A stretch of 56,310 nt of DNA from a virus (taxonomy: Duplodnaviria > Caudoviricetes), in the IMG/VR virus record IMGVR_UViG_3300044617_001003, positions 1 to 56,310 of that record, one strand, 5' to 3'. Under the pieces are notes generated by a model. It did not search any database. It was not told where the DNA came from and saw nothing but the letters and a program-made list of their open reading frames with translations. Numbering within the stretch: position 1 is the first letter of the stretch; every line of letters starts with the position of its first letter. The translations under genes were made by a program, and so were the position numbers. This document shows, piece by piece, positions 7,014 through 33,146 of the stretch.

Positions 7014-7344
7014 TCATGTGTGGCTCCGTAGCATTATTCATTCTACAGAATGCGCCCGCGCCGAGCCGGGACTCGCGGTCTGCCTCCGACCATCCGGCGC
7101 GGATCTCGGCGGCGGCCACCCGAATCTGCTCAGGAGACGGGATAAACACGTTCGGCTCCACTCGCTCGCGTAGCCCCAGCGAAGCCGCGTAGGCCAGAAG
7201 TTCGTGCGCCGACATCTCCATCTCGTCGCAGACCTCGTCGAAGGACAAGTCGCTGTACGACCAGAGTTTTCTCAGTTTTCGCTTCTTGTTCGCGCTGACT
7301 TTATTCGCGCGAATCTCTTCTTCAGTCCTGCGCGGCGACGCCAT
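6937..7344 (-). CDS. HTH-like protein with PSPEQI...EIR..W motif
   Basis: LSFDEVCDEMEMS HTH-like segment; C-terminal motif shared with 9112-9438. Confidence 0.65.
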   Translation of the reverse strand: MASPRRTEEEIRANKVSANKKRKLRKLWSYSDLSFDEVCDEMEMSAHELLAYAASLGLRERVEPNVFIPSPEQIRVAAAEIRAGWSEADRESRLGAGAFCRMNNATEPHMNDGRGTTDTRGQRGDSRPEIGRQGD

Positions 7345-8197
7345 GCGGTATGACGGCTGCATATCGGCAGCCGGGATTGAGGTACATTTGATATCCGGCC
7401 TGCCGCATGGTTTTGTGCAGGGCAACGTGTTCGCAGTCGCCGCCGACGTATTCGACCCCGTCCGCGAAAAAAGCCTGAGACCGGTAGACCGCCAGACCGC
7501 CGAATGCGGAGTTCATCGGGATCGGCTCGCTGCCGACCGGCGGCAGGAGTTCGTGAAACCAGCCGTGTTGCCGGCGGTCCTCCCACCAGTTCAGACGCGC
7601 GGCCCAGGCGTCGTACTGCATGACCCTAATCGCGCCCTCTTGCTCGGCGTGCGTGGAGGCCCAGAGCGAAACACTCGCCATGCCGCCCGGCCGAAGCGAT
7701 CGGCACTGCTCGGTGCCGTAGGCGTCAAGCCAGCCGATGCTGTTCAGGACGCCTTCCGGCGAGAACCCGCCCGTGGGATCCATGTCGATCACGACCACGA
7801 AGTCGCAGTCAGGGGCGTTTTGAACAGCCCAGCGGCGGCACCGGTTTCGGTACTCCGCCAGGGCGATCGTTCTGTCCTCCTCGAACCCCCGATAATCCGG
7901 CCTGTGCAGCGTGGCGTGTTCGTGGGTAGCCCACGGCCGGGACTCGGCGAACGAGGTGAGCATCTGGGTGGTGCCGTCGGTCGAGTCGTTTTCGTAGACG
8001 TAGAGCGACGCACTCTTGAAGAACCCGGCCGTCTCTTCGAGGAGAACCAGCGTGTTTTCGAGAAACGGCATGGCGTCCCTGGCGATGGCCAGGAAGCACA
8101 CCGACGACCTCGCGGCTGACTCTCGCCCAATGGCGACGTATTTGTCGTAATGCTCTTGATACGGCGGCTCGATTCGCCAGAAATCTTCAGGCTTCAT
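7322..8197 (-). CDS. GT-A fold glycosyltransferase (CAP59/Anp1-like)
   Basis: YENDSTDGT, LAEYRN, DMD (DxD), SAFGGLAVY, DCEHV. Confidence 0.8.
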   Translation of the reverse strand: MKPEDFWRIEPPYQEHYDKYVAIGRESAARSSVCFLAIARDAMPFLENTLVLLEETAGFFKSASLYVYENDSTDGTTQMLTSFAESRPWATHEHATLHRPDYRGFEEDRTIALAEYRNRCRRWAVQNAPDCDFVVVIDMDPTGGFSPEGVLNSIGWLDAYGTEQCRSLRPGGMASVSLWASTHAEQEGAIRVMQYDAWAARLNWWEDRRQHGWFHELLPPVGSEPIPMNSAFGGLAVYRSQAFFADGVEYVGGDCEHVALHKTMRQAGYQMYLNPGCRYAAVIPHGVAAQD

Positions 8198-8798
8198 TGA
8201 GGAATATCCAGAAGTGGTTCGGGTGGGCGCCTGGGTACGGGTGCGGAATGGCCATAAACTTCTCGTGGCCGAGCCGTTGAATCGCGTGGCTGACATCTCG
8301 CCTGTTGTCATGCACCTCGATCAGCCACCGCGTCCCCCTGAACTTCTCCGGCGTCGCGCCGTTCAGAACCAGATGCTCTGCGCCCTCAACGTCGATTTTC
8401 ACAAAATCGACGACACCGCCAGCGCAGGCGTCAAGGACGTAGTCCAGGGTTACTGCGGGGACACTCTCGACATCTATGACAGATGTTTTTTCTTGTCCAC
8501 CGCCGCCAATAGGGTGTGTCGGCAGGATCGACGATTGGTCAGGCTTGTCTCGGAGGTAAAAGTCCCTCTGACCGAAGGCGTCGGCGCACGCAAACTCGTG
8601 GAGCGTGGCGTTCCTGGGGATATGACGCCGGATTCGCTCTGCAGCCCGGCGGTCGGGCTCGACGGCAACGACGCTGTCGAAATACTGCGACAGCCAGTGC
8701 GTCCATTCGCCCTTGTTGGCCCCGATATCCAGGGCTACACGACGATGGCCTCGAAGAAAAAACTCGGCGTAATCCTGCAGCAAAAAGACTTCTTCCAT
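8187..8798 (-). CDS. FkbM family methyltransferase
   Basis: LDIGANKG, VEPD, FVKIDVEGAE..VL.G. Confidence 0.9.
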   Translation of the reverse strand: MEEVFLLQDYAEFFLRGHRRVALDIGANKGEWTHWLSQYFDSVVAVEPDRRAAERIRRHIPRNATLHEFACADAFGQRDFYLRDKPDQSSILPTHPIGGGGQEKTSVIDVESVPAVTLDYVLDACAGGVVDFVKIDVEGAEHLVLNGATPEKFRGTRWLIEVHDNRRDVSHAIQRLGHEKFMAIPHPYPGAHPNHFWIFLNEA

Positions 8799-8799
8799 G

Positions 8800-9078
8800 C
8801 TACACGCACCTCTGCAGAAAAGTCCTCGCGTCCTTGGCCGAATAGACGACTGCGCACGGGCACCCAGCGGCAGCCAGTTCGGCCATTCGTTTTTCCTGAA
8901 TCTTGCTGGGGGAGTTCCCAGGCACTTTGGCCTCCATCCAGACCGCGCGGCCGCCCTTGATGGCAAGAACGTCGGGAAGCCCGGCCATCTGGTAGGCGCT
9001 GCCATGAATCTTGACAGCGAACCAGCCCAGAGACCGTGCCTCTGCGACGACTTTCGTGACGATCGTTCGCTCCAGCAT
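8800..9078 (-). CDS. VRR-NUC domain nuclease / Holliday junction resolvase
   Basis: G.PD.L....G...WMEAK..G..PS..Q. Confidence 0.9.
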   Translation of the reverse strand: MLERTIVTKVVAEARSLGWFAVKIHGSAYQMAGLPDVLAIKGGRAVWMEAKVPGNSPSKIQEKRMAELAAAGCPCAVVYSAKDARTFLQRCV

Positions 9079-9086
9079 GGAGCGTT

Positions 9087-9115
9087 AGTGTGGCAACCTG
9101 TAGCCTACCGGTCAA
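9087..9115 (-). promoter_or_regulatory. putative sigma70 promoter
   Basis: TTGACC-N17-CACACT in the intergenic gap; TAGGCTAC in the spacer. Confidence 0.55.
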
Positions 9116-9438
9116 GCCCGAAATGACATCGTCTCGCGATCGAACGACGAGTAGGACGGGGGGCGCCACTGCTTCCTGCCGCCGCCGACAAGCCGCTGCG
9201 CCTCCTCCTGCGGAGTCCATCGGCTCCGGATCTCGGCGCACTTGGCCTCGATCTCCGCAGGCGTCGGGTCGTCGTCCACAGAAGCCCGACTCACGAATCG
9301 CTTCGGGAGACCGTAGCGATCCTTGAGCAAATACATCAGTGTCCGCCTGATGCCGAGTTCCTTGCAGAGCATCTGATTGCTCATGTCGGTGTGCCAGAGT
9401 TCAAACAAACGCTTGACATCGACCCTCTGTCCTCTCAT
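9112..9438 (-). CDS. HTH-like protein with PTPAEI...EIR..W motif
   Basis: LCKELGI...LKDRYGLP; paralogous motif with 6937-7344. Confidence 0.75.
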   Translation of the reverse strand: MRGQRVDVKRLFELWHTDMSNQMLCKELGIRRTLMYLLKDRYGLPKRFVSRASVDDDPTPAEIEAKCAEIRSRWTPQEEAQRLVGGGRKQWRPPSYSSFDRETMSFRA

Positions 9439-9758
9439 TGCCCGGCCTCCTTGCAAATAGCCTTGTGTCCCTCGATCGCCTGCTCAACGCTTGAATATCT
9501 CTCGCAGATGTCGCACCCCGGAAACGTCATCGTCTCCCAGAGCAGCGGCGGCCCGCCGTCGTAGGCGTGGTTCAGCCCCAGAAAGACGGTCGAGACCCTG
9601 ATGCCGTTCTCCAGAACGTCGCTGGCGATGCTGAACCCGCAGCCTGTTTTGCTTGCGTACCAACTGGACGACTCCGGCATGGCGGCGTGCCACTCGAAGT
9701 ATTCGAGGACTCCGCACGGGCGTGTCGAGCCGCTCTCGTCGACTGTGTACCAGTTCAT
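9435..9758 (-). CDS. conserved phage hypothetical protein
   Basis: VSTVFLGLNH....PPLLWETMTF..RYS...A..GH motif, recurrent in phage proteins. Confidence 0.75.
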   Translation of the reverse strand: MNWYTVDESGSTRPCGVLEYFEWHAAMPESSSWYASKTGCGFSIASDVLENGIRVSTVFLGLNHAYDGGPPLLWETMTFPGCDICERYSSVEQAIEGHKAICKEAGQ

Positions 9759-10042
9759 TGCGCGGCCTCTGCTGGCTTTTGGCATGGGCAGTCGGGATGG
9801 TGCATCCCCCACTTGTCGCCAACGACGAACCAGTGGCCGCTGTGCTTCACGGTGCAGAGCGTCCACGACTCCGGCGGCTCGCTGTCCTCGGCGGCCGACG
9901 GCACCGTCATGTGGTCGGCGTTCTTGCGGGCGGCCAGGATCGCCGGCACGAGCAGGCCGACCAGCGTGGCGAGGATCGCCAGGACGGTGAGAGCCTCGAC
10001 GAGCGTGAAGCCGCGCCGGCCTGCGTTGTATCGCTGCGTCAT
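9755..10042 (-). CDS. prepilin-type N-terminal cleavage/methylation domain protein
   Basis: RRG-FTLVE followed by hydrophobic ALTVLAILATLVGLLVPAILAAR. Confidence 0.85.
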   Translation of the reverse strand: MTQRYNAGRRGFTLVEALTVLAILATLVGLLVPAILAARKNADHMTVPSAAEDSEPPESWTLCTVKHSGHWFVVGDKWGMHHPDCPCQKPAEAAQ

Positions 10043-10290
10043 TCTTCGCCCTCAAGTTCCTCATCGAACAGTGCGTCGGCGAACTCCTGGGCGGCATCGC
10101 CCAGGTGTTCGTAACGCTCCCTCAGTGAAGTTTGCAGCCACCTCGTCCTTGAGTTGCACTTCTCCTGCAACCTCTCAATCTCCTTCACCGCCTCCTCAAT
10201 CCACGACTCCAGCACGAACTCATAGGTGCCGATGTCTTCTGTCCGGTGCTTGAGAAGATCGCGAAGGACTTGGAGCAGCGGTTTCTTCAT
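10039..10290 (-). CDS. hypothetical protein
   Basis: ATGA-coupled; AAGGA RBS. Confidence 0.7.
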   Translation of the reverse strand: MKKPLLQVLRDLLKHRTEDIGTYEFVLESWIEEAVKEIERLQEKCNSRTRWLQTSLRERYEHLGDAAQEFADALFDEELEGEE

Positions 10291-10365
10291 CTGTCTCTTT
10301 TCCTTGATTTATGCGACACGTTGAACCGTCGTGTCGCCGCTTGCGACAGGTTTATATGCAGCACT

Positions 10366-10425
10366 CGGTAACGCCGTGCCTCGCGTCTCGCGGCCGTGCG
10401 GTGAAGATGCGGCGGGGTGTTATGC
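10366..10425 (+). mobile_element. degenerate attC-like site
   Basis: TAAC...CGCGTCT...AGATGCG...GTTATGC imperfect fold-back. Confidence 0.35.
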
Positions 10426-10470
10426 GGCACGGGGGGCGGCTATCGAGAACCGCATACTCACTGGTTCTGC

Positions 10471-10809
10471 CTACCCGTTCTCTGCCCGTGAAACAATCTC
10501 GCGAGCCACTTCGATCAGTTTCCACACCGCATCGTCGTAACCCTCGTCAGTCGCTCGGATTATCCGCTTGAGCATCGACAGCAAATCCGGTGAGGCGGCG
10601 AGTAGTCTGGCGTTGGCAAGATTCTCTGCGTTCTGGCAGCCAGGAAGCACAGCGAGGCACAAATACTTGCCAACGCCGTCGGGGGCAGTGGCGACGGCAA
10701 ACGACTCGCTTATCGTTGCGATCATCCACGGTGCTGGCGTGTGCGATGCAGAACCAGCGGATGCAGGAGGCATCGCTGCCGAGTCCTGCTGTGTAGTCGA
10801 ATCACTCAT
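10471..10809 (-). CDS. cassette A gene: phage protein with HTPAPW / NARLLAASPDLL motifs
   Basis: Common phage accessory motif; start codon and RBS lie inside attC1. Confidence 0.8.
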   Translation of the reverse strand: MSDSTTQQDSAAMPPASAGSASHTPAPWMIATISESFAVATAPDGVGKYLCLAVLPGCQNAENLANARLLAASPDLLSMLKRIIRATDEGYDDAVWKLIEVAREIVSRAENG

Positions 10810-10837
10810 GCGATGCTCCTGATCCTGCGTGTTATGC
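10748..10837 (+). mobile_element. attC site 1 (integron cassette recombination site)
   Basis: GCAGAAC-N5-GAT(G)CAGGAG(G)CATCGC...GCGATG-CTCCTG-ATC-N6-GTTATGC: R''/L''/L'/R' architecture with two extrahelical bases. Confidence 0.85.
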
Positions 10838-10996
10838 CTTCAAGTCAGCGCGAGTCATTCCGTCGTAGAAGTTCCACATCGCGTAAGGAAACAGTGCAAA
10901 CGGAATCCACCATTTTTCCGTGAGAACGAGGAGCGTGAATGTAAACGCAAATGTCACCGCAATGTCGATCAGCCGCCTTTTTGTTCTCTCGCTCAC
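10832..10996 (-). CDS. cassette B gene: 54-aa membrane protein (not in ORF track)
   Basis: GTG start with GGAGG RBS; MSERTKRRLIDIAVTFAFTFTLLVLTEKWWIPFALFPYAMWNFYDGMTRADLKA; TAA stop lies in the attC1 R' box. Confidence 0.7.
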   Translation of the reverse strand: MSERTKRRLIDIAVTFAFTFTLLVLTEKWWIPFALFPYAMWNFYDGMTRADLKA

Positions 10997-11024
10997 GGCA
11001 AATCCTCCGTTTCAATGATGCTTG

Positions 11025-11081
11025 GCATAACCAGCGGATGAAAGCGGACGGCAGAGCCGCCGCTTATCCTGCGTGTTCTCA
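11025..11081 (+). mobile_element. attC site 2
   Basis: GCATAAC-CAGCG-GAT(GA)AAGCGG(A)CGGC-AGA-GCCG-CCGCTT-ATC-CTGCGT-GTTCTCA; outer arms identical to attC1. Confidence 0.85.
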
Positions 11082-11234
11082 ATCAAAACAATGCAGGCGA
11101 ACGAACGCCTCCGCAAGAGCCAATGCGGCCCATTTCCTGAACTGCACAATCACTCGCCCGTCAATAACGACAGTCCACCCGGAACGCCGGTCGCATCCGT
11201 AGTCCCTGTCGTAGTGGAGGGCGAATGATTTCAT
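11079..11234 (-). CDS. cassette C gene: 51-aa hypothetical protein (not in ORF track)
   Basis: MKSFALHYDRDYGCDRRSGWTVVIDGRVIVQFRKWAALALAEAFVRLHCFD; TGA stop lies in the attC2 R' box. Confidence 0.65.
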   Translation of the reverse strand: MKSFALHYDRDYGCDRRSGWTVVIDGRVIVQFRKWAALALAEAFVRLHCFD

Positions 11235-11245
11235 ATCTGATTCGT

Positions 11246-11293
11246 TGAGAACCACGCGATGCTGCGGACGAGCCGCAGATCGCAGCGTTCTCA
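11246..11293 (+). mobile_element. attC site 3 (short)
   Basis: TGAGAAC-CACGC-GAT(G)CTGCGG-ACGAG-CCGCAG-ATC-GCAGC-GTTCTCA. Confidence 0.75.
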
Positions 11294-11710
11294 GCCTAAC
11301 CGCTCAATCACGCCGCGAAGCGTAGCCGCGACCCTCGCACAGTCCTCGTCATCGTCGTTGTCCGCATACGACTCCGCAGCACACGCAATCGCCTCCCGCT
11401 CCTCGTCGGTGAGCGTGGGCGAGCGGTAGAGCGGGACGACATCGGCCATGCCGACCACAGCACCTTCGGCGTCTTGTTGGCTGTACGACAGCCACATCGG
11501 CTGGCCGTTCTTGCCAACCGCTGCCCACGCCACCGGCTCCCGTGCATTGCCAGTGACCTCACCGTGTGCCGCCTCAAGCCGCAGCCTTGCGATCTCGGCA
11601 TCCCCTCGCAGGCGAGTGATCTCGTCTGCCGCCTCGTCAAACAACTCGCCGAGCCTCGCAAGGTGCAGGCCGCGCCAGCCGCGAAGTCGCGCCACAATGT
11701 CGTCACTCAT
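11291..11710 (-). CDS. phage hypothetical protein (DIVARLR / EAADEI.RLR / EPVAW / LTDEEREAI modules)
   Basis: Typical mosaic phage accessory motifs; stop lies in the attC3 R' box. Confidence 0.8.
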   Translation of the reverse strand: MSDDIVARLRGWRGLHLARLGELFDEAADEITRLRGDAEIARLRLEAAHGEVTGNAREPVAWAAVGKNGQPMWLSYSQQDAEGAVVGMADVVPLYRSPTLTDEEREAIACAAESYADNDDDEDCARVAATLRGVIERLG

Positions 11711-11960
11711 GCGAGCAGCATCCGTCGCAGCCGTGGATATTCTTGTGCCCCATGCCAACGCGATCCAAGTACGCCGCATCGTCTGGGTCTGGATGCCCTA
11801 CGCCGTGCTGGCAGATTCTCTCCATTTTCCCGGCGTCGTCTCGCCAGCGCATCGGCCACGACCTCATATGATGCTCCGAAGGGTTATGAATGCAGCAGAA
11901 CTCGCCAGCGCATTTCGCAGCGTCGTGAGTGACGAGGCTTTTCACTCTATTCCCCCGCAT
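11703..11960 (-). CDS. Cys/His-rich conserved phage protein
   Basis: C....CCIHNPS.HHM, ERIC.HGVGHPDPD, HGCDGCC. Confidence 0.75.
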   Translation of the reverse strand: MRGNRVKSLVTHDAAKCAGEFCCIHNPSEHHMRSWPMRWRDDAGKMERICQHGVGHPDPDDAAYLDRVGMGHKNIHGCDGCCSHE

Positions 11961-12168
11961 CAGCGGCCGCGTCAATCAGCGCTTTGCCGAGCAGCCTCGC
12001 CACTTGCGCCGAAACAGTGAAGTCAATGTCCCCAAAATGCGCCTTGCTTGCCCCGTATGGTGCGCGAACCTCGACGCACCCCAAGCCGTCGCAGCCCGGC
12101 CCGACCTGAATGCACGCCCCGCTCTCGTCGTGGTAAATGCGGCGGACGAGTTCTACGCTGTATGCCAT
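11947..12168 (-). CDS. hypothetical protein
   Basis: GGAG RBS before MAYSVELV. Confidence 0.65.
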   Translation of the reverse strand: MAYSVELVRRIYHDESGACIQVGPGCDGLGCVEVRAPYGASKAHFGDIDFTVSAQVARLLGKALIDAAADAGE

Positions 12169-12191
12169 CGCTTTCTCCGTAGCGCTTGAGG

Positions 12192-12404
12192 TCACTCGCT
12201 CACCCTTACGCCGCTGTCTTGAATCATCAGAAGAACCTCGTTCGCGAGGCGGCGCTCGTCGTCGTCCGGGTCGCAATGATCCATGATGGATCGGCAGTGG
12301 CTTTCGATCTGCCACAGCGCAGCGATGGCGTCGTTGCCCTGGAGGGCGGCATCGAACTCGTCGGAATCGTCCGGAAGGGTGAACGAGAGCGTGGCTCGCA
12401 TCAT
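12192..12404 (-). CDS. hypothetical protein
   Basis: MRATLSFTLPDD..EF..A motif; AAGGAG RBS. Confidence 0.75.
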   Translation of the reverse strand: MMRATLSFTLPDDSDEFDAALQGNDAIAALWQIESHCRSIMDHCDPDDDERRLANEVLLMIQDSGVRVSE

Positions 12405-12601
12405 TGCGGGATCTCCTTGTTCAAGAACTTGACCAACTCGGTTTCGTAGACATCGAACGATTGTTCGAGCATATGGCAGGCAAACAGCAGGCCGGTTGCA
12501 TCAACGCTTTCTGCAAACTCGGTGACTCTGCCGAACGCCTGCCGGAGAGACGAGAACTGCTCCTGCATTGCGACGAGGGCTCTCTCTACGCTCTTTTCCA
12601 T
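12401..12601 (-). CDS. hypothetical protein
   Basis: Coupled helical ORF MEKSVER... Confidence 0.6.
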   Translation of the reverse strand: MEKSVERALVAMQEQFSSLRQAFGRVTEFAESVDATGLLFACHMLEQSFDVYETELVKFLNKEIPQ

Positions 12602-12993
12602 TGGTCTCGACTGTCTTTCTCGAAAAGAGTTGGGAACAGCCCGGCCGACTTCGCGACCATGAGCATTCGCGGGTGAAACACCGCGACAGACCCGAGTTCC
12701 GCGACTCCGGCGGCCTTCAGGCCAGCGGCGGCGAAGGTCGCGACGCCACGGCCACGAAAACCGCCGTGAACAAAGGCTTCGAGCGTGTCCCAGTAGCCGG
12801 CCCGCTCCTCTTGCCAAGGCTCCGAGCGAACCCAGCCGACCATCCGGCCGCCGCTGAACACCAGGGCGATATGGCCACGGTAGACGCCTTCGCGGAGCGA
12901 CTTCTGAAAGTCGCTGCCTTCTTTGGTCAACGCTTCGACTGCAGCGAGTTCCTGCCGAGAGCAGTCATCAAGCGGTTTGACTGTGCATTCCAC
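12586..12993 (-). CDS. GNAT-family acetyltransferase
   Basis: AFVHGGFRGRGVAT acetyl-CoA binding motif A. Confidence 0.75.
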   Translation of the reverse strand: MECTVKPLDDCSRQELAAVEALTKEGSDFQKSLREGVYRGHIALVFSGGRMVGWVRSEPWQEERAGYWDTLEAFVHGGFRGRGVATFAAAGLKAAGVAELGSVAVFHPRMLMVAKSAGLFPTLFEKDSRDQWKRA

Positions 12994-13717
12994 GAGAAGC
13001 CTCCATGATTCTCTGGGCCGCGATCAGCCCGTACTCGGGATTGAGTTCAATTCCCGTTGCGTCCCTGTCCATTTGGACTGCTACTGCACAAACCGTGCCA
13101 GATCCCGCAAACGGATCGAGAACAGAGTCGCCAGGATTGCTCGACACGCCGACGATCCGGCGGACGAGTTCCTCTGGAAGTTGCGTCGGCACGCCCTTGA
13201 TTCGCTCGCGAAACGTGCCGCAGACCCGGCTCACCTGCCAGACATCGCCCATGATTTTTTTGCCGTCGGACGCAGCCCGCCGGTCGCCGTATTTTGCGTA
13301 CCTCGCTGACGGCACGAGGACCGCGTCGCGGTTGAAGGTGAACCGCCGGCTGTCCTTCGTCGCGTAGAAGATCGGCCTGGAGCATCGGCCGAACTTGCTG
13401 TGGCAGTAGACGCCGAACGTCTCGTGCCATGTAATCCTGTTTCGCATCGTCATGCCGGCGCGCCGGATGGCGATGTCGATGTCGGCGCCATGCTCCTGGC
13501 CGCTGATGACCCAGAGCGAGCCGTGCGGCTTGAGTACCCTGCAGCACAGGCCTACCCACTGCTCGCACCAGATGTCGTAGTCACCCCTCCTATCCGCCTT
13601 TGCGCCGGCCCCGTAGTCGATGCCGATGTTGTACGGAGGGTCCGCAATGACGAGGTCGACGCTCTCGCTGGGCATGGCCCTCATCGCGTCAGCGCAGTCG
13701 CCGATGATGATGCTCAT
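12968..13717 (-). CDS. N4/N6 DNA methyltransferase (beta class)
   Basis: DPPYN near the N-terminus, VLDPFAGSGT near the C-terminus, GIELNPEY. Confidence 0.92.
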   Translation of the reverse strand: MSIIIGDCADAMRAMPSESVDLVIADPPYNIGIDYGAGAKADRRGDYDIWCEQWVGLCCRVLKPHGSLWVISGQEHGADIDIAIRRAGMTMRNRITWHETFGVYCHSKFGRCSRPIFYATKDSRRFTFNRDAVLVPSARYAKYGDRRAASDGKKIMGDVWQVSRVCGTFRERIKGVPTQLPEELVRRIVGVSSNPGDSVLDPFAGSGTVCAVAVQMDRDATGIELNPEYGLIAAQRIMEASRGMHSQTA

Positions 13718-13965
13718 GGTTGCAACTCCTTTGCCCGCATCAACAGCCGCACGACCTCGGCGTGAGGCAGGCGCCCCCAGCCGACTGCACGGGCCGCGCT
13801 CTTGACCACCGCGTCGTCGCCACGCCCGTTGGCGTCGGCGACAACAATGAGGTTGCGAACGTGAGCCTCAAGCAGCGATATGCGTTCCTTCAGCGGCTCG
13901 ATCCGACCATGTAGCCTCGCGTTGCCGCGTATCGCACCGGTCAGTTCCTTTCGATAGTCCTTCAT
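13714..13965 (-). CDS. hypothetical coiled-coil protein
   Basis: Coupled to the methylase; start uncertain. Confidence 0.6.
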   Translation of the reverse strand: MKDYRKELTGAIRGNARLHGRIEPLKERISLLEAHVRNLIVVADANGRGDDAVVKSAARAVGWGRLPHAEVVRLLMRAKELQP

Positions 13966-14171
13966 CAGTGCCCCCGGCGGGAGTTGAACCCGCGTCTCGC
14001 CTGCAGCGCGTTTTATCCGTTGGCAGCGTGCGCACTCTGCGTCCAAACTACGGGGAACCCGTCAGTCGTCACCGAACCATGTCGTGCTGGGGAGGATCGT
14101 GAAGAACACGACGACCCCTACGAGACACAGGACAGTTGCGACGTTCAGCCAGATGTTTAGGGCGTCGTGTA

Positions 14172-14471
14172 TCACGACGCATCCTCCCGAAGCAGCGAGA
14201 CGCCGATCTCGCCAGGAGCAGCCGGCGGAATCGTGTCGGTTGCGACGAACTCGCGGAGGGCCGGCTGACTGCGGTTGCCGGCATCGTCGATGTCGACGAG
14301 AGCGACCGAGACGTTCGAGTCCTGGGCGACCTTGATCTCGCCGAAGTCCGTCGTTTCCTTGGGGAACGAGACCCGGGAAATCTGCTCACCGTTGACGGCA
14401 ACCGTCAACTCGCGGGAGACGACATCAGCATCTACAGCAGGACCGGCAGAAACAGAGTAGACAAGCGCCAT
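14172..14471 (-). CDS. single Ig/FN3-like domain protein
   Basis: Beta-rich; V.LVDIDDAGNRS and DTIPPAAPG motifs; CAGGAG RBS. Confidence 0.7.
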   Translation of the reverse strand: MALVYSVSAGPAVDADVVSRELTVAVNGEQISRVSFPKETTDFGEIKVAQDSNVSVALVDIDDAGNRSQPALREFVATDTIPPAAPGEIGVSLLREDAS

Positions 14472-14472
14472 G

Positions 14473-14736
14473 CTATTTGGCTCCTGTATTGTTAGACGAA
14501 CCCACAGAACAGGCCCGCGACACGCTATCGCAAGGCTTTGTATTGACTTCCGGAGTCGCGCAAGTTCCGCAACGAGACCGAACATCCAGCAACTCCTCCC
14601 TGTAGACCCCGACCCCGTCAGGGGCTTTGATTCCGAGCCTGACGGATCCGTTTCGCTGGACCCTGACGACGCAGACCTCGATGCCGCTCGAAGGGATCAA
14701 GACGCTCTGGCCAGACTTCCTTGTCACGACGAGCAT
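14473..14736 (-). CDS. csrA: carbon storage regulator CsrA/RsmA
   Basis: MLVVTRKSGQSV.I...I...V.....VRLGIKAP..V.VYREEL. Confidence 0.9.
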   Translation of the reverse strand: MLVVTRKSGQSVLIPSSGIEVCVVRVQRNGSVRLGIKAPDGVGVYREELLDVRSRCGTCATPEVNTKPCDSVSRACSVGSSNNTGAK

Positions 14737-15200
14737 GGCTCACTCCTGTGTGTCGCGGGGTAGCCTATCGACGAAATCCATTTCTGGCAAGCCTCGCGGA
14801 CGGCGTCGCTCTTGTGCTTGGAGGCACACCAGCGAATATACGCCTCTCCGTTCTCTGTTCTGGATGCCTGTGCAAGTGTCATGCCGGAGCAGATGCCCTC
14901 GAAAAAAACGAAGTCGTCGCTTGGCGCAAGAACTCCCTCGACCGCAGGAACGTGCTGCTGCCAGCCGCAAAACGCGCAGGCGATCAGCCACTGGCTCCGG
15001 TAGTCGTCGAGAATGTCAAAATAGGTAGCCTGACACTTTGGATTGTGGCAGGTGAAGTGCCCGTCTGACTGCCCGAGAATCGTCTCTGGCTCGTAGGAAA
15101 CAGACTGCGCCGGCGCCGGTGGTGGCTCCTGCTTTTTTGCGCGACGGGGCTTCTTGGACTTCTCTGGCTCCTCCGGCGAGATGTCGAACAGCAGGCTCAT
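14724..15200 (-). CDS. zinc-ribbon hypothetical protein
   Basis: CHNPKC...CAFC. Confidence 0.7.
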   Translation of the reverse strand: MSLLFDISPEEPEKSKKPRRAKKQEPPPAPAQSVSYEPETILGQSDGHFTCHNPKCQATYFDILDDYRSQWLIACAFCGWQQHVPAVEGVLAPSDDFVFFEGICSGMTLAQASRTENGEAYIRWCASKHKSDAVREACQKWISSIGYPATHRSEPCSS

Positions 15201-17737
15201 ATCCGCACCCCCATCCGGAAGTCGACCGGGTCGTCGGAGATAATCAGTTCTCGCCTCGCCCTCGTCACGCCGACATACTCGACGCGACGCTCCTCGTCGT
15301 GCTGTGCCCTGTCGGACGACCGAGCCTCGTGGATCTTGCGGGTCAGGGTCGTCGACAGGACGACAACGTCGGCCTCCATGCCTTTCGCCGAGTGGACGCT
15401 CCCGAGGCGAATCTGTGGCCGTGCGGCCAAATCGGCGCCCCACTTCAGGGCCGCCGCCCGAAACTTCTCGCCGCCGTCGACCAGATCGGCCCAGGTTCCA
15501 CCAAGCACCCTGTCCACCATGGCCTGCGTCATGCCGGTGTCGCCGAGCGCCGACGGAAAGACAGCGTCCCAGCGGCGCTGCGTCTCCTCGCGGCGCCAGT
15601 TGGTCTTGGTGCCCCGCTCCAGCAGCGGGCCGTCCTTTCCTCGCGACGGAATCTCCTCGATGGCGCAGGCGAAGTCTTCGCCAGAAACAGCCTCGCCGTG
15701 TTCGAGATCCCAGAGCGCCCGGATCCCACGAAGGACCGCCGTGTCACTCTTTGCCTTGAGTTTCGCGAACGGCAGCCGCTTCTTGCGAAGCACTGCGGCC
15801 CACTCGTCCAGCATGAAGTTGCATCGGGCGAGGATCAGCGTGGGCTTCGTCGGATCGAGGCCGGGCACCACGCTGTCGGCACCCTGGCCGCGAGAAATCC
15901 TGCCGTCGTGGTCGGCCGGGGACACCTCCCTGTCGAAGTACCCCTCGTGCATTTGCCGCAGGCACTTCTCGCCGAGCGACAAGATCGGCGCGGGGCACCG
16001 GTATGACTTCGGCATGATCCGCTTCTTGTCGGCAGGCCACGACATGAAGTGCTTGGAGTCAGAGCCGCAGAATCCGTAGATCGAGTTCCCGGTGACATAG
16101 CCGTTTTCGACGACGTAGGTGTGGTATTTCTCGACTTCGAGGCTGTAGACCCTCGCCGTACTTCCAGGGGCGAGCCTGCGAATCGACTTGACGGCGACCC
16201 ACTCGCAGTGCGACCCGACCGTCCTGCTGCCTCGCGGCCCAGTTCCTCGCTTCTTCCTCTCCAGAACGCCGTCGATGAGCCGTGGCGCCAAGTGAATACC
16301 GGGCAACACATTGACAGCCTGAAGAAACCGGCCGGCGCGGCAGCCGTTCTTGCTCCTGTCTGCTTTTTGACAGAACGGAAACAGGATGTCTCGGTCGTGG
16401 TCGTCGAGGCATCGGCGACCGGAATCAGTCATGTCGCCCATTGCGGAGAACACGCCGTCGATGAACTCTCGGCTCAGGTTCGTCTTCCCGTGCGGCGGCC
16501 GAAACGTCACCTGCGGGATGCCGTACCGGCACGACACGATCTGCTCGTGCATTCTGGCATCGCGGTCGGTGTCGAACACTTTGAGAACCCAGACAGAGTC
16601 AGCGTCTTCTTGATTCATTCGCATCTTGAGCCTGAACTCGCCGTTCTTCTCGGATCGCTTTTTCGAGAACATCTGCACCGTACCTACCCGCCACCGGTTG
16701 CCTTTTCGCATCAGGTAGGTCGCGTATGCCTCGCGCTTTTTCGTTCGGACGTACCACTTGTGGTTCGTCGTACAGACTGACTTGGTGCCGTCCTCGAACG
16801 TGACCTCGATCAAGTCTCGCGAATCAACATCTCGCCACGCCTTTCTGAACGGGATCTGCTTGCTCGTTCCGTAGAACCTACCCTCGTTCTTCGAGAACGC
16901 GATCAGTTTGTCGGTCCTGGGGTCGAGATCCTCGATCGGCTTGTAGCCAGACGCGGTCAGGACGGGTGTCCCTTCAAGGGAGCATTGAAAGGGGTCTCCC
17001 GCGACGTAAACCCACGCCACCTCCGGCCCGCTGGCGAGCCGGCGGCAGACCTTGTCCACCAAGGCCGAGGCATCCTGTGCCTCGTCGAAGATCCACGCCC
17101 TCACGCCGGCCGGCAGTTCGCCTTCCGGGTCAGTGAAGTAGAAGCCGTCGGCCTCGAAGTGGATGCCGGCGTACCGGGCAAGCAGGTCCGTAAAGTCAGA
17201 CCTGTTCTCCAGACGCTTGGCCTGCTCGTACCGGTCAACCAACTGCTTGCAGCGGGCGAACGGCGGCACCTCTCGGCCGGCGCGCACCATCCTCTCAACC
17301 GTTTTCTTGAGCGGCTCAATACGCGCCCGGCTGACATCCCAGCATTCCAGTGCTGCGGCCGCCGTCTTGTCTCCAGCATACCTGACCCGGCCGTCGTCCT
17401 CGTCCAGTAGCGTCCGGATGTCGACCTTCAGGGCTCCGGCAAGCCAAATCTGGCTCTCCTTCTTGTCGTCGATCATCTGGCCCTTCACGATCCCCAACTG
17501 CTTGTGGCAGATGCCGTGGGCCGTCTTGAACCAGCCGTCTCGGGACAGAACCTCCACCGGAACGCCCCAGGCGAGGCTCGCCCGCTCGACGGCCTCCTGC
17601 CGGGCGGCCTTCGTCATGCTTGCGAAACCGACAGCAAACGGGCTGCCGCCGAGGGCCGACTTGGCCCCCTCCATGACCCGGAGAAGTTCCGTAGTCTTCC
17701 CAGACCCCGCAGATCCAATGAGCATTGCTGTTTTCAT
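15197..17737 (-). CDS. UvrD/REP-like SF1 helicase containing an intein
   Basis: GSAGSGKT, DEAQD, GDPFQ|SIYGF, SYRCP, SVHSAKGMEAD, EERRVEYVGVTRAR. Confidence 0.92.
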   Translation of the reverse strand: MKTAMLIGSAGSGKTTELLRVMEGAKSALGGSPFAVGFASMTKAARQEAVERASLAWGVPVEVLSRDGWFKTAHGICHKQLGIVKGQMIDDKKESQIWLAGALKVDIRTLLDEDDGRVRYAGDKTAAAALECWDVSRARIEPLKKTVERMVRAGREVPPFARCKQLVDRYEQAKRLENRSDFTDLLARYAGIHFEADGFYFTDPEGELPAGVRAWIFDEAQDASALVDKVCRRLASGPEVAWVYVAGDPFQCSLEGTPVLTASGYKPIEDLDPRTDKLIAFSKNEGRFYGTSKQIPFRKAWRDVDSRDLIEVTFEDGTKSVCTTNHKWYVRTKKREAYATYLMRKGNRWRVGTVQMFSKKRSEKNGEFRLKMRMNQEDADSVWVLKVFDTDRDARMHEQIVSCRYGIPQVTFRPPHGKTNLSREFIDGVFSAMGDMTDSGRRCLDDHDRDILFPFCQKADRSKNGCRAGRFLQAVNVLPGIHLAPRLIDGVLERKKRGTGPRGSRTVGSHCEWVAVKSIRRLAPGSTARVYSLEVEKYHTYVVENGYVTGNSIYGFCGSDSKHFMSWPADKKRIMPKSYRCPAPILSLGEKCLRQMHEGYFDREVSPADHDGRISRGQGADSVVPGLDPTKPTLILARCNFMLDEWAAVLRKKRLPFAKLKAKSDTAVLRGIRALWDLEHGEAVSGEDFACAIEEIPSRGKDGPLLERGTKTNWRREETQRRWDAVFPSALGDTGMTQAMVDRVLGGTWADLVDGGEKFRAAALKWGADLAARPQIRLGSVHSAKGMEADVVVLSTTLTRKIHEARSSDRAQHDEERRVEYVGVTRARRELIISDDPVDFRMGVRI
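16085..16984 (-). mobile_element. 300-aa intein in helicase motif III
   Basis: Begins CSLEGTPVLT, block B CTTNHKW, ends VYSLEVEKYHTYVVENGYVTGN before Ser; excision restores GDPFQSIYGF. Confidence 0.92.
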
Positions 17738-17874
17738 GACCACAAAACCAAAAACCGTTTTATTCCCAGGATTTGTGGTACGTCGTAAACCCTTGCAAAC
17801 AGGGCACTTACGACTCGAAAACCACAAAACCAGAAAACCAACGCAAAATGAGGATGCGAAACGTCGTTTTTTTT
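17738..17874. other. putative replication origin
   Basis: AT-rich gap after Prim-Pol; ACCACAAAACCA x2, an inverted TTTGTGGT, and a GTCGTAA...TTACGAC hairpin. Confidence 0.6.
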
Positions 17875-23261: not shown

Positions 23262-24128
23262 ATGTTGCTGGAAGACTTCTTGAGGGACATCTACGTCCCT
23301 CTCAAGGGCATCTGTGCCCAGACCGAGTTGCTCTACAAGATGACGATTGCGGAGTTCGGCAAATCGTTGGGCAAAGACCCGGAACTTGCCGACCTCGAAG
23401 AACTCAAAGTCGCCAAGTTTCTGGCCAAGCGAGTCCGCGAGCGCAAGCCGGCCACGGCGGCCAAGGACCGCAGCCAAATCCGCGCTTTGTGGGAGTTGGC
23501 GGCCCGCAGGCGCATGGTCAACGAGTGGCCGACGATTTCTAGGATCCGGGTGCCAGAGCGCGTCCCGGAGGCGTGGCTGACGGGCGAGATGGAGTCGCTG
23601 CTCGTCTCGGCGTCCCTGGAGACTTCTAGGTACGTCGGCATTCCGGCGGCGCTCTGGTGGCGAGCCATCCTGCTGGTCTGCTACGACACCGGGGAGCGCA
23701 TCGGCTCTGTGGTGTCGGCTCGGTGGCGAGACGTTCGCGGCGGCAGCATTTTGTTCGTCGCCGAAAACAGGAAGGGGAAGCGTCGGGACATTCTTCGTGC
23801 CCTCAAGCCGGAGACGCTCGCCGCCCTGCAGGTGATCCGCTTTGACCGCGAACCCGGCGACCTCGTGTTCCCATGGCCCAGGTCTCGCGGCTACCTGTGG
23901 AGGCGGCTTGAAATCATTCTGAAGCGGGCCGGGCTGCCGCACGACCGGTCGTGCAAGTTCCACAAGATCAGGCGCACGACGGCCAGTTATTCGGCCGCTG
24001 CCGGCCTGTCGGCCCAGGAGATCCTCGATCACTCAGACCCGAAGGTCACTCGCCGCTACATCGACCCGAGGATCGTCACTCAGCCGACGGCGGCCGATGT
24101 CATTCCGCCGCTTCGGGAGCCGGCGTGA
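23262..24128 (+). CDS. tyrosine recombinase/integrase
   Basis: TGERIG (R), RKGK (K), FHKIRR (HxxR), LDHS (H), TRRY (Y). Confidence 0.9.
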   Translation: MLLEDFLRDIYVPLKGICAQTELLYKMTIAEFGKSLGKDPELADLEELKVAKFLAKRVRERKPATAAKDRSQIRALWELAARRRMVNEWPTISRIRVPERVPEAWLTGEMESLLVSASLETSRYVGIPAALWWRAILLVCYDTGERIGSVVSARWRDVRGGSILFVAENRKGKRRDILRALKPETLAALQVIRFDREPGDLVFPWPRSRGYLWRRLEIILKRAGLPHDRSCKFHKIRRTTASYSAAAGLSAQEILDHSDPKVTRRYIDPRIVTQPTAADVIPPLREPA

Positions 24129-30611: not shown

Positions 30612-30640
30612 AGTGTCGCTGCGTAGCGTCTGTGGGTCAA
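30612..30640 (-). promoter_or_regulatory. putative sigma70 promoter
   Basis: TTGACC-N17-GACACT in the intergenic gap. Confidence 0.55.
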
Positions 30641-31875
30641 GGCAGTTTGCGCGTCCACCAAGTTTGATCTACGCCAAGTTCGACGCGGCCTCCGAACGCC
30701 TCATCGACAGCCCGCTTGACCCCCCACTTGCCGCGCCGCTCCATCGGGTGATCGTAGTCGTGGCCCCCGATCCAGCCCCCCGGCCGAACCTTCGGCAGCC
30801 ACGCCGCGATGTCTGCGGCAACGGCCTCGTAGGTGTGTTCGGCGTCGATGTAGCAGAGGTCAAGGGAGCCATCTTGGACAGCGCTGGCGCCAGCAATGCT
30901 GTCACAGTCCAAGATTCTGGGAGAGTACGGCGCCGTGAGCCCAGCCGCCCTGCCCTTGACGACCGCCCACTGGGCCTCCGTCAGCGAGGCGGCCAAGTCG
31001 CCGCTGTCCCGGTATCGGTCGCCCGCGACAGACCACTGATCGACGAGCGTGGCCTTCGACTGCGGGCGGCGTGACAGCACGCCGAGGGCGTTGTACCCGT
31101 CAGCGACGCCGACCTCGGCCCACGATGACCCGTCTGCGAGCCGCTGCGCGATTTCGTCGCACGGCGACTTCTGCCACCGCGTTCGCTGAATCCGCGCCCG
31201 GCGCCTGGTCGGCCCGGTGAAGTGGTAGATGAAACCGTTCATCACTCCCGTGTTGTGTTCCGGCCGGTGGGCCTGTGCGGCTGCGACCACGTTCCATTCG
31301 TGGGGGAGCCAAGTCACTTTTGCGTCGGTGTTGTCGATGAGGACAGATAGGGACGCCTGCTCCGGCAGTCTCCATTTCGTCCACCCCGCAGACTCGCCGA
31401 CTCCCCGGAGGTGCCGAAACAGTTGCTCGTGATGCCGGGGCGAGTAGAGAAACAGCCCGCCGTTGAGATGCTTGCTGTCGTGGCAGGGCTCCATTCCCAT
31501 CCGCGCCGCCCAGACGCGGACGCACTTGTCTCGGTGCCTGCTGATGATCGACGCGGCGCTCTCTGCGCGGTCAAACTCCGGTGGGTCGAACTGCCGTGCG
31601 GAAACGACGCCGATGTGGTCTTCTGGCACGAGGTCAAACGGGCTGGGCGCATCCCACCGGATCAGCATATCGGCGTCCAGTTGGATCACGCGGTCGTAGT
31701 CGGCCAGCCTGAGAGGCGCGAACGCCTTCTGCCAGAAGTGATGGATGTCGCGGAGCGGCTCGGTGAACTCGACGAAGTCGCACCCCCACCTGTCGCACGC
31801 CGCCAGAAACGACTCGCGGCTTTTCTGGTGGATGCAGCCGCCTCCGACATTCAAGACAGCCAAGGCCAGTTTCAT
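30637..31875 (-). CDS. GT8-like glycosyltransferase fused to class I SAM methyltransferase
   Basis: QLDADM, NGG, EQ..L, WN, HFTG; C-terminal AEVGV..G, YIDAEHTYE, KVRPGGWIGGHDY. Confidence 0.85.
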   Translation of the reverse strand: MKLALAVLNVGGGCIHQKSRESFLAACDRWGCDFVEFTEPLRDIHHFWQKAFAPLRLADYDRVIQLDADMLIRWDAPSPFDLVPEDHIGVVSARQFDPPEFDRAESAASIISRHRDKCVRVWAARMGMEPCHDSKHLNGGLFLYSPRHHEQLFRHLRGVGESAGWTKWRLPEQASLSVLIDNTDAKVTWLPHEWNVVAAAQAHRPEHNTGVMNGFIYHFTGPTRRRARIQRTRWQKSPCDEIAQRLADGSSWAEVGVADGYNALGVLSRRPQSKATLVDQWSVAGDRYRDSGDLAASLTEAQWAVVKGRAAGLTAPYSPRILDCDSIAGASAVQDGSLDLCYIDAEHTYEAVAADIAAWLPKVRPGGWIGGHDYDHPMERRGKWGVKRAVDEAFGGRVELGVDQTWWTRKLP

Positions 31876-33146
31876 GCCCCACCTCTGACAACGTGAGAAA
31901 TCGCCGCAGCCTTCTGATCGTCGCTGGGCGATATGCCGAGGAAGTCGACCATGCTCTCGACCGCCTGCGCCGGGTCGGCCAGAAGTGCGTCGTGGCGAAC
32001 GTCAAGAACCGCTTCGGCCGGGAGCGACGCAAGGAACTTCTCCTTCTCCTCCCAGAGCCACCGCTGGACGGCCTCGCACTGCTCGTCCGTCGCGGCCAGC
32101 CACCCGCGAGACTTGGCGCTGCGTCGCTTCAGCGAATCAATGGAATCTGCCAGCGGCCTGTCGCAGTGAATCACCTTCAGGCCGTCGCCGCAGATCGAAA
32201 CCAAGTGGTCGCCCGCCGCGCACAGGTGCGGATACTTTCCGCCCACCAGCCCGCTGCCTCCTCGGCTGGCGATCCACCGAGAGAGCCGCTGGCCGAACTC
32301 GCCCTGGTCTGCGACGCCCACGGTCGGGAACCTCGCCGCTCGCTCGCATAGCCGCGCCAGACCGACGGCCTCGCCGCCGCCGCCGTTGCGGGCCTCGTAT
32401 CCGCCTAGTTTGTCGCCCATGTTGACGCCGAGTTTGTGCAGCATCATTGCAATGCAACTCGACCCGCTTCGGTGCAGCCCAACGACCGCCACGAACGGCC
32501 GCGAACTGGACTTTCGGTGCCACCACCGCTCAGGCACCTCCTTCCACGAAACGTCGCTCTTGCCGTCAGCGGCCTGACCGCAGAGCCACTCCTCCGGTGC
32601 GTAGCACGGGATGAGTTTCGCCTTGTGCATTCGGCCGTAGTGATGGTCGATATGGTTTCGGTCTACCCAGTGATCGCAGGCGTTGAGCCACTGGTAGGCC
32701 TCTCGCATCGCTGCGGCCCCACGCAACGCATAGGCGTGCGTGCGGTTGATGTTCTTTGCCTGCACCACGCCCGCCGCGATCCGCTCTGCTCGCTTCAGAT
32801 GCTGGCCGCCGAGATACGCCTGCCCCCAATCCTGCGGAACCGCGCGGAAGAATCCGTCGGCCTTGTCCGAGAAGCCATCGCAGAAAGTGGCGTCGTCCTC
32901 GAAGATCAAGACGGACTCGACGCCGTCGTTGAGGCACTGCTCGATGATGCTCAGGTGGCTTCTGTAGCACCCCCAGGCGCCGCCGCCCTGCTTCCACCAC
33001 GCCGGGTGCGGGGCGAGTTTTCCGTCCACGGCCGGGAAGACCTCGATCTCGCCCAGGCGGAAGTCGACAGGGACTCGCGACAAGAATGCTTCGAGCCTTT
33101 CGGGCCGCCGCTTGAGCGACACGACGCAGACGCGGCCGAACTTCAT
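31872..33146 (-). CDS. GT25-like glycosyltransferase fused to sulfotransferase domain
   Basis: VSLKRRPER, AVDG, GC..SH, IFEDDA, THAY; C-terminal VVGLHRSGSS PAPS-binding loop and LLADP......DFLG. Confidence 0.85.
   Translation of the reverse strand: MKFGRVCVVSLKRRPERLEAFLSRVPVDFRLGEIEVFPAVDGKLAPHPAWWKQGGGAWGCYRSHLSIIEQCLNDGVESVLIFEDDATFCDGFSDKADGFFRAVPQDWGQAYLGGQHLKRAERIAAGVVQAKNINRTHAYALRGAAAMREAYQWLNACDHWVDRNHIDHHYGRMHKAKLIPCYAPEEWLCGQAADGKSDVSWKEVPERWWHRKSSSRPFVAVVGLHRSGSSCIAMMLHKLGVNMGDKLGGYEARNGGGGEAVGLARLCERAARFPTVGVADQGEFGQRLSRWIASRGGSGLVGGKYPHLCAAGDHLVSICGDGLKVIHCDRPLADSIDSLKRRSAKSRGWLAATDEQCEAVQRWLWEEKEKFLASLPAEAVLDVRHDALLADPAQAVESMVDFLGISPSDDQKAAAISHVVRGGA

Follow-up and report, generated by a model that had tools for sequence, protein, structure and literature searches.

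In the familiar bacterial integron, a single platform promoter drives a series of promoterless genes, each gene being followed by its own recombination site, attC. This order of gene and attC is the usual arrangement and not a requirement of the recombination chemistry. To our knowledge, attC clusters borne by phages have so far been reported only as rare finds. Here we describe such a cluster in the IMG/VR virus record IMGVR_UViG_3300044617_001003, a tailed phage (Duplodnaviria; Caudoviricetes) from a freshwater lake whose whole record of 56,310 bases, with a completeness estimate of 99%, was analyzed and is referred to below as the window. A close described counterpart is given by Qi 2023 (PMC9892861), an account of 17 clusters of attC sites without an integrase (CALINs) in phages, which were found at low frequency, typically with cassettes in the same direction, and in which five of the six sites tested were recombined by IntI1. 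We consider it probable that positions 10465-11287 of the window are three integron-type cassettes in CALIN form that differ from the usual arrangement in having antisense genes, each preceded by its hairpin, and that are linked to the integron integrase (IntI) of the host.

Recombination sites and cassette mobility

The three sites, attC1, attC2 and attC3 (Table 1), were called with R1, a covariance model built from 54 relatives of the site family, and not with IntegronFinder. Over the 56-kb window R1 found exactly three sites, all on the + strand (E = 5.6e-23 for attC2, 1.9e-8 for attC1 and 1.1e-7 for attC3), and the next distinct locus had an E-value of 0.019. Each site is an imperfect hairpin that runs from xxxxAAC to GTTxxxx on the + strand, with all of its bulges in the 5' arm of that strand. 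When DNA folding was compared with shuffled sequences, z ranged from -2.3 to -4.3 across both strands (+/- values of -2.6/-2.3 for attC1, -2.9/-3.0 for attC2 and -4.3/-3.8 for attC3). The arm motifs of attC2, exact 11- to 12-mers, occur without mismatch in the window in attC1 and attC2 only. With three sites inside 550 nt and no IntI in the record, the array has the CALIN form, taking the two-site minimum as in Qi 2023. A MAFFT alignment of four candidate sites gave no usable structure.

An exact-pattern search with the joined core motifs of attC2 found 55 IMG/VR contigs, as against only three short contigs of metagenome-assembled genomes (MAGs) in the species-genome collection scanned. On these 58 loci R1 gave 224 matches, weak reverse-strand echoes included, and a regular expression, which overlooks two loci carrying an arm variant, gave 183 sites in same-strand arrays of up to seven. 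The sites fall into three size classes of ~41, ~48 and ~81 nt from AAC to GTT, and their terminal loop varies from 3 nt to ~36 nt. The AAC and GTT triplets are kept, and paired, in all three sites of the window and in 134-135 of 135 distinct family members. Among these 135 members, 97.1% of cells were paired over the 19 modelled pairs and compensatory changes were seen at 11 of the 19; none of 500 shuffles scored as high, and slid controls were 32-53% paired, the alignment having been fitted to the model. In many loops of the long class (L051 2647-2705, L055 4777-4835, L009 2403-2461 and similar) the right-arm motif (..CCTGCGTGTTGTCA..) is present a second time, and the model called this copy as a short site. 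Partial duplication of the arm may have given rise to the long class.

Each cassette of the window is bounded by complementary boxes. In all three cases, the right box of one site or junction and the left box of the site that follows are exact reverse complements: GTTCTGC (10464-10470) and GCAGAAC (10748-10754) around cassette A, GTTATGC and GCATAAC (11025-11031) around cassette B, and GTTCTCA and TGAGAAC around cassette C. Across the family, the right box of a site was complementary over at least 4 nt to the left box of the following site in 94 of 122 adjacent pairs; shuffled partners gave a mean of 18.3 and a maximum of 32, and the two boxes of one and the same site matched in 22 of 122. Such complementarity is what a unit that circularizes and restores a palindromic site would leave behind.

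Comparison with a sister phage (L115) placed the crossover at a single dinucleotide step. The two genomes are 98.2% identical over window positions 8000-10010 and 98.9% identical over 11598-15000; they diverge exactly at G|TT (10464/10465), and homology returns only at 11598. Between these points the sister phage holds another set of cassettes, from which cassette A is missing and in which cassette C is shared, with 87% identity and identical boundaries over 11075-11291. The body of cassette B was found in three other loci (L025, L030 and L054), there following another site and another gene. Right-flank homology between related sites likewise starts directly after GTT. The array abuts a conserved stretch of 60 nt (...CACTGG|TT) that is also present in 5 further IMG/VR contigs, with 5 different sequences after GTT across the 6 contigs (those of L184 and L185 are alike). 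Within this platform, GAGAAC (10445-10450) is the complement of the GTTCTC at 11287-11292, on the far side of the array; the platform showed neither a significant hairpin nor an R1 match. On the strength of these junctions the 60-nt platform behaves like an attI, and the three hairpins, judged from sequence, are genuine recombination sites with their crossover at G|TT.

Two further candidates near the platform were rejected. A full "attC0" to the left of cassette A was sought at 10395-10475 and 10330-10475, which folded no better than shuffles (z of -0.5 to +0.7 for 10330-10475) and had no R1 match; a TAAC...GTTA hairpin at 10369-10422 was dropped on the same grounds. In contigs from four lake-water runs spanning several years, compared with window positions 9500-12500, breaks at sites and other neighbors were seen at 10748, 11029, 11082 and 11248, the sides of the site-to-site joints being shorter than 31 nt or derived from other phages. 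These contigs are a weak hint of mixed array variants in nature. Among the sequencing runs listed for this phage there was none of RNA.

An alternative would be that the hairpins are regulatory boundary elements like the T4-type stem-loops known as PeSLs, and that the genes between them are shuffled by homologous recombination, no site-specific enzyme being involved. Gene shuffling of this kind is documented for PeSLs (PMC2839356, PMC4122927), and the highly conserved arms with their exact 11- to 12-mers, the stems that enclose ribosome-binding sites in mRNA, and the exchange of site cores in 4 of ~14 groups of sites sharing a left flank would all fit exchange within the arms. Homologous exchange, however, accounts neither for the complementarity of boxes (94 of 122 pairs where 18 are expected) nor for breaks exactly at G|TT, nor for the presence of the same sites beside a true intI-attI pair, and a promoter scan of 9000-14600, which carries little information for a host whose promoters may be of other types, found no promoter-like site. 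A terminator scan of the same interval gave 6 terminator-like sites, no excess over the 4.1 expected from shuffles. We therefore regard this alternative as very improbable and retain site-specific recombination at G|TT.

Table 1. Features of the cassette array and the phage recombinase, in window coordinates
Feature	Position	Strand	Description
attI-like platform	10405..10464	+	Conserved; last base is the G of the crossover G|TT (10464|10465)
Cassette A	10465..10831	+	Box remainder TTCTGC, ORF A reversed, own attC1 up to the G of GTT
ORF A	10471..10809	-	112 aa; start inside attC1; residues 1-20 (MSDSTTQQDSAAMPPASAGS) from loop and left arm of attC1
attC1	10748..10837	+	Long class; boxes GCAGAAC (left, R'') and GTTATGC (right, R'); G bulges at 10763 and 10770
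Cassette B	10832..11075	+	TTATGC, ORF B reversed, attC2 up to the G of GTT
ORF B	10832..10996	-	54 aa; hydrophobic stretch (by eye); GTG start 6 nt past GGAGGA, 29 nt beyond attC2
attC2	11025..11081	+	Medium class; boxes GCATAAC (left, R'') and GTTCTCA (right, R')
Cassette C	11076..11287	+	TTCTCA, ORF C reversed, attC3 up to the G of GTT
ORF C	11079..11255	-	58 aa if started at GTG 11255 (inside attC3), 51 aa if started at ATG 11234 (outside)
attC3	11246..11293	+	Short class; boxes TGAGAAC (left, R'') and GTTCTCA (right, R')
Gene D	11291..11710	-	Backbone side of the array; 3' two-thirds (11291-11598) in the variable region
P0001, tyrosine recombinase	23262..24128	+	288 aa; PF00589, E 1e-11; only one in the phage; Xer/lambda-Int-like

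Gene polarity and site-borne translation starts

Three independent lines of evidence bear on which strand is the attC top strand. According to Nivina 2016 (PMC5027507), the recombining bottom strand carries AAC in the cut box, bulges near L'' on the other arm, a conserved T as the last bulge, and a 6-bp stem between the bulges. On the - strand of the sites described here, C and T bulges lie on the GTT-bearing arm and are separated by a 6-bp stem, CCGCTT/AAGCGG. Core sequences were also found to travel with the gene to their left: site pairs sharing only the left flank had a median core identity of 0.95 (27 pairs in ~14 hand-made groups, 10 of which have the same core), and pairs sharing only the right flank had a median of 0.39 (11 pairs in 4 groups, in none of which the core is shared), close to the 0.43 of unrelated pairs. 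Finally, in a host integron that uses the same site family (contig L057), the order outward from intI is attI junction, gene body, and then attC core. Because bulge geometry, core linkage and the intI-attI order of L057 agree, the + strand is the attC top strand. The - strand is then both the coding strand and the attC bottom strand, and would be expected to fold and be cleaved at AA|C.

The usual layout, in which the coding strand is the attC top strand, was found neither in the window nor in most of the viral intervals between adjacent sites; it was found in host arrays of the same family. In the 104 unique viral intervals, a - strand ORF (open reading frame) fills at least 85% of the interval in 81, and a + strand ORF does so in 24; a - strand stop codon lies at the GTT box in 83, whereas only 10 have a + strand stop close to the following AAC; GC content at third codon positions is higher in the - strand ORF in 68. 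The stop codons of the cassette genes cluster at the crossover: among 102 genes, 43 stop inside the 7-nt box and 46 more at 7-14 nt, so that 89 terminate within 14 nt of it. In the window, the TAA of ORF B (10834-10832, - strand) falls within the box GTTATGC at 10831-10837, and the TGA codons of ORF C (11081-11079) and gene D (11293-11291) fall within the GTTCTCA boxes at 11075-11081 and 11287-11293. An initial annotation, made from the letters of the window alone, had proposed attC sites with the + strand as top strand, genes running opposite to those of most integron cassettes, and stop codons within the R' boxes. The first proposal is confirmed by R1, the bulges, core linkage and the order in L057, the second is borne out by the tabulation of gene against attC orientation (mostly antisense in the 104 phage intervals, with Pfam-matched ORFs on the top strand in host integrons of the same attC family), and the third proves to be a rule of the family. 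That annotation also placed a fourth stop codon against a box; the TAG of ORF A (10473-10471) does directly abut GTTCTGC at 10464-10470, but this box is not part of a full attC and is instead the junction of the platform with cassette A.

We next consider the overlap of sites with coding sequence. The - strand of attC1 reads CAGGAG, 6 nt, and the ATG at 10809, all inside the site. Ten homologues of ORF A (83-121 aa) were obtained by protein search, and a search for ORF A relatives in viral contigs found none. The leader and a HTPxPW motif are present in 9 of the 10; there is no alternative start between attC1 and the conserved HTPxPW motif, and ATG 10725, which encodes M29, is not conserved as a start, its position being occupied by R, T or L. 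The profile phrog_1273 aligns to residues 21-110 of ORF A. Judged from these comparisons, ORF A takes its ribosome-binding site, its start codon and ~20 of its codons from attC1, as the initial annotation had read it. Similar leader peptides are encoded in other sites of the family: 58 of 78 unique long sites contain an ATG in a single frame that reads ...ASAGS, with no stop codon before the frame exits the site. Such leaders, of 14-20 aa (e.g., MSDETTPQD.AAMSPASAGS or MTHD...PS.AS.GS), precede unrelated protein bodies.

The class of a site was mirrored in where its gene starts. Of 78 long-class sites with an ORF, 49 contained an in-frame ATG, in 42 cases together with a ribosome-binding site. 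None of 48 medium-class sites had an ATG inside the site; there, a ribosome-binding site and ATG typically follow 20-30 nt after it, a rule that the start of ORF B fits. Of all site-borne starts, 54 of 55 are in one frame. For ORF C, neither candidate start (GTG 11255 or ATG 11234) has a clear ribosome-binding site. In the mRNA fold over attC1, a stem of -37.9 kcal/mol encloses the ribosome-binding site and AUG of ORF A and has the ORF B stop codon at its foot. Translational termination and reinitiation through the attC hairpin would be a plausible consequence of this predicted fold.

An ordinary polarity would require the - strand to be the attC top strand, with each gene followed by its attC and with ORF A starting at ATG 10725, outside the site. 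Stop codons at a box right after each gene do resemble the familiar stop in R'', and the box rule, being symmetric, fits either polarity. The core, however, does not travel with the gene on its right (the same core in none of 4 right-only groups, as against 10 of ~14 left-only groups), the bulges are on the wrong arm for such a reading, the gene body and not the core adjoins attI in L057, and in ORF A the position of M29 is variable while a conserved motif lies upstream of it. We consider ordinary polarity highly unlikely and retain the + strand as the attC top strand.

ORFs A-D had no match in the Pfam library searched, which lacked PF27050, the family that source tables assign to relatives of ORF A; ORFs B and C had no family match in PHROGs. 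Gene D has 77 related loci in viral contigs, many of which align mainly at residues ~48-139. Its first ~37 codons are backbone sequence common to the sister phage, and the remainder is variable, with an EPVAW motif like that following attC leaders elsewhere. Gene D appears, from this division of its sequence, to be a fusion of a backbone start with a variable remainder. The array of the sister phage (reverse complement of L115 3472-4002) ends in a long-class site without its right arm.

Host integrons, candidate recombinases and phage setting

The host link comes from Planctomycetaceae. L057 is a 7.6-kb contig of a Planctomycetaceae MAG that carries chromosomal genes (ABC-F, rhodanese, SufE, ROK and radical-SAM) and an integron integrase scoring 443.7 bits with TIGR02249, for which the cut-off is 265. 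A junction, ...ACAAG|TTCTGTGGCTAC, lies ~230 nt past the integrase stop codon and is followed by two cassettes with sites of the same family. In 151 sampled Planctomycetaceae genomes, R1 matches were found in 11. In L094 and L096, integrases 69% and 74% identical to that of L057 lie upstream of same-direction arrays. In L057, L094 and L096 the layout is inverted: intI shares its strand with the attC top strand and points toward the array, and attI lies past its 3' end. In L093 (7912-11461), an integrase 48% identical to that of L057 is divergent from related attC sites, which is the classical layout; both intI layouts therefore occur with this site family. Of 24 ORFs scanned in the arrays of L094 and L096 (13 on +, 11 on -), four had a Pfam match, each of them on the attC top strand, so the usual polarity exists within this attC family. 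IntI is thus associated with the family through the attI junction in L057 and through IntI genes beside arrays in L094, L096 and L093.

At L057 480-820, the two attI-proximal cassettes are of the phage type: they have an exact medium-class core, and their genes converge on intI, running antisense to the attC top strand. The beginning of the first one resembles cassettes in phage loci L027 and L051. The sequences suggest that a host integron captured phage cassettes, or the reverse.

An integron integrase was found in none of the viral loci analyzed. The only tyrosine recombinase of the phage, P0001, matched Xer-type models alone among NCBIfams, far under their cut-offs, and not TIGR02249; against PDB sequences it gave only weak matches to lambda integrase (E 4e-4 or weaker) and no IntI structure. 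It lacks the ~40-50 residues that IntI has before HxxR. A single-protein search of viral contigs for P0001 relatives returned only the sister contig. Homologues with 32-59% identity are present in 11 other array-bearing loci, and by coordinate arithmetic those in L052, L024 and L009 lie ~0.35-0.75 kb from the array. A PF00589 gene was present in each of the 5 further array-bearing genomes searched, and in 2 of the 5 the recombinases were just 23-29% identical to P0001.

It is conceivable on these grounds that the cassettes are moved by P0001, as a second recombinase lineage acting on folded hairpins, and not by a host integrase. Such a role would suit its being the only tyrosine recombinase in a 99%-complete record, its homologues in array-bearing loci (three of them near the array), the PF00589 gene in every further genome searched, and the statement in PMC5027507 that Xer proteins are the only other tyrosine recombinases known on single-stranded substrates. 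Yet temperate phages carry integrases anyway, so that co-occurrence of P0001 with arrays is expected; the low identity in two of the five genomes speaks against such a role, as does the absence from P0001 of the extra domain by which IntI holds bulged bases; and the same attC family adjoins true IntI genes in the host, where phage-type cassettes sit at attI. We regard P0001 as an unlikely catalyst, and the IntI of a Planctomycetaceae host as the likelier acting enzyme on present sequence evidence.

Several observations weigh against an integron-type interpretation and temper our confidence in it. In the window, which represents a 99%-complete record, TIGR02249 had no match. The consensus RYYYAAC/GTTRRRY is absent from the boxes GTTATGC, GTTCTCA and GTTCTGC, which retain AAC/GTT alone; across the family the most frequent box starts were CTGT, CTCA and ATGC, and the L057 and L094 sites beside true IntI genes are equally off-consensus. 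Nivina 2016 (PMC5027507) states that only AAC is conserved among all attC sites. The central spacer sets CAGC opposite TGCGT; the fold prediction pairs two of these positions, with a 2x2 loop and a single T bulge left over, so that the unpaired spacer is below the usual 5-6 nt. Of the two bulges on the proposed bottom strand, the last is T, as in studied sites, but the first is C and not the G that such sites usually show. The box rule fails in 28 of 122 adjacent pairs, some of which involve false regular-expression sites, and the core differs in 4 of ~14 left-flank groups (e.g., L005 and L019), which pure IntI chemistry does not predict. These discordant cores need either homologous exchange in the conserved arms or later divergence; exchange in the arms is probably the cause. 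The 55 contigs come from one exact-pattern search and the site list from one regular expression, and the contigs are not independent lineages. The host link, finally, rests on MAG contigs, among which a mis-assembly of L057 is possible in principle, although the sequence common across its junction is only ~15 nt.

The array occupies a block of small genes without annotated function at 9-14.5 kb of the window, the accessory-gene block of this ~56-kb phage. A Pfam search of 63 window ORFs identified a tailed phage, with small and large terminase, portal, prohead protease, capsid and tail genes, a replication block comprising a primase-polymerase, an SNF2 helicase and an UvrD-like helicase, and a DNA methylase; the matched terminase, structural, replication and methylase ORFs are all on the - strand. 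Cumulative GC skew falls near-steadily along the window, without reversal at the array. In the UvrD-like helicase (876 aa; 15197-17827, - strand), the stretch separating the N-terminal from the C-terminal helicase domain gave a weak Pfam match to intein splicing that did not reach the cut-off (E 9e-5); the protein may contain an intein. A 95-aa protein at 9755-10042 (- strand) has a prepilin-type N-terminal methylation motif (PF07963, E 5e-6), which is unusual in a phage. Glycosyltransferase, sulfotransferase and methyltransferase genes lie in or beside the structural module (30637-33269, 45330-46058 and 7322-9005, - strand), and a trypsin-like protease is encoded at 50111-50878.

Proposed exchange and comparison with described systems

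Read on the + strand, each cassette consists of TT plus a box of 4-8 nt, a reversed gene, and its own attC hairpin through the G of GTT; read in gene sense, the hairpin precedes its own gene, whose stop codon falls in or beside the cut box. Cassettes are inserted or exchanged at G|TT, either at the attI-like platform (10405-10464) or at resident attC sites, most likely through the integron integrase of a Planctomycetaceae host that uses the same attC family and in which one contig has phage-type cassettes at attI. In the long class, the variable loop serves as a translation start, with ribosome-binding site, ATG and a polar leader of 14-20 aa in one frame through the conserved arm, so that each such long-class cassette carries its own start wherever it lands. 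New cassettes would then enter at the promoter-distal end of the gene block with a start of their own, leaving resident genes undisturbed. The reversed polarity might arise because the platform sets the direction of the attC and phage transcription sets that of the gene. The initial annotation had offered two other ideas, that the design keeps the phage operon translationally continuous after any insertion and that the direction of phage replication may set the polarity. The first has in its favor only the mRNA stem and the ORF B stop codon at its foot, and the second finds no support in the sequence. A fixed platform that sets the attC direction, combined with survival of only those cassettes that match phage transcription, fits the data equally well and is simpler.

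A more ambitious reading joins several of these elements: freshwater Planctomycetaceae phages would run an integron-like exchange of their own, with a platform at the promoter-distal end of an operon, a phage-specific pool of antisense cassettes in which attC serves as a 5' translation module, and two-way traffic with host integrons, where the cassettes would be silent and would converge on intI. In its boldest form an Xer-like phage recombinase would be the catalyst, and the system, if real, would represent a second, independent solution to hairpin recombination that does without the extra domain of IntI. Taken jointly, we find this reading rather doubtful.

One attC family builds arrays of reversed polarity in dozens of lake-water phage contigs, whereas host arrays of the same family keep the usual polarity, and it follows that recombination chemistry does not dictate gene direction. 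The long-class sites indicate that evolution can turn a site of recombination into a module that both encodes protein and starts translation, and they provide natural examples of attC sites within coding sequence. Phages and host integrons appear to share a cassette pool, which would be a route for accessory-gene flow in an under-studied phylum. These arrays also open the questions of how strand choice is coupled with gene expression and of who recombines cassettes in a phage without an integron integrase. In a literature search we found no report of uniformly antisense phage cassettes, of an attI-like platform in a phage, or of attC sites bearing gene starts, although orientation tables in supplements, such as that of Qi 2023, may hold some.

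Among described systems, the attC sites of sedentary chromosomal integrons, as presented in PMC5027507, share with the sites described here the AAC/GTT hairpin, two bulges 6 bp apart opposite the cut, a loop of ~3 to ~36 nt, the G|TT crossover and clade-wide conservation of the site; in the phage, by contrast, the coding strand is the attC bottom strand and the site precedes the gene, the boxes are off-consensus, the first bulge is C, the spacer is short, and the long class is coding. The phage CALINs in the account of Qi 2023 (PMC9892861) are likewise attC clusters without integrase, in temperate and virulent phages, for which cassette exchange with bacterial integrons has been proposed. Set against that account, the arrays reported here comprise one conserved site family in at least 55 viral contigs, with an attI-like platform, uniformly antisense genes and coding attC sites.

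PeSL cassettes, too, are small accessory genes bounded by repeated stem-loops in hyperplastic phage regions with gene shuffling; PeSLs are described (PMC2839356, PMC4122927) as promoter-terminator motifs that would act by homologous recombination, and they show neither a complementary box rule nor a link to an integrase. Integrons with inverted integrase genes (PMC8352920) resemble L057, L094 and L096, where intI points to the array; in L094 and L096 the Pfam-supported genes follow the attC top strand, whereas phage-type cassettes, including the two at the attI of L057, are antisense. For site-borne translation signals, the nearest parallel is that of ORF-11 and ORF-18 of attI1 and of short attC ORFs, for which PMC8876359 describes a site bearing a ribosome-binding site and start codon, a 7-bp core that gives the stop codon, and reinitiation over a stem-loop. 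Those helper ORFs, in the same description, encode short peptides that serve a downstream cassette, whereas in the phage array the site holds the true start of the cassette's own protein, and its arm is translated as the N-terminus.

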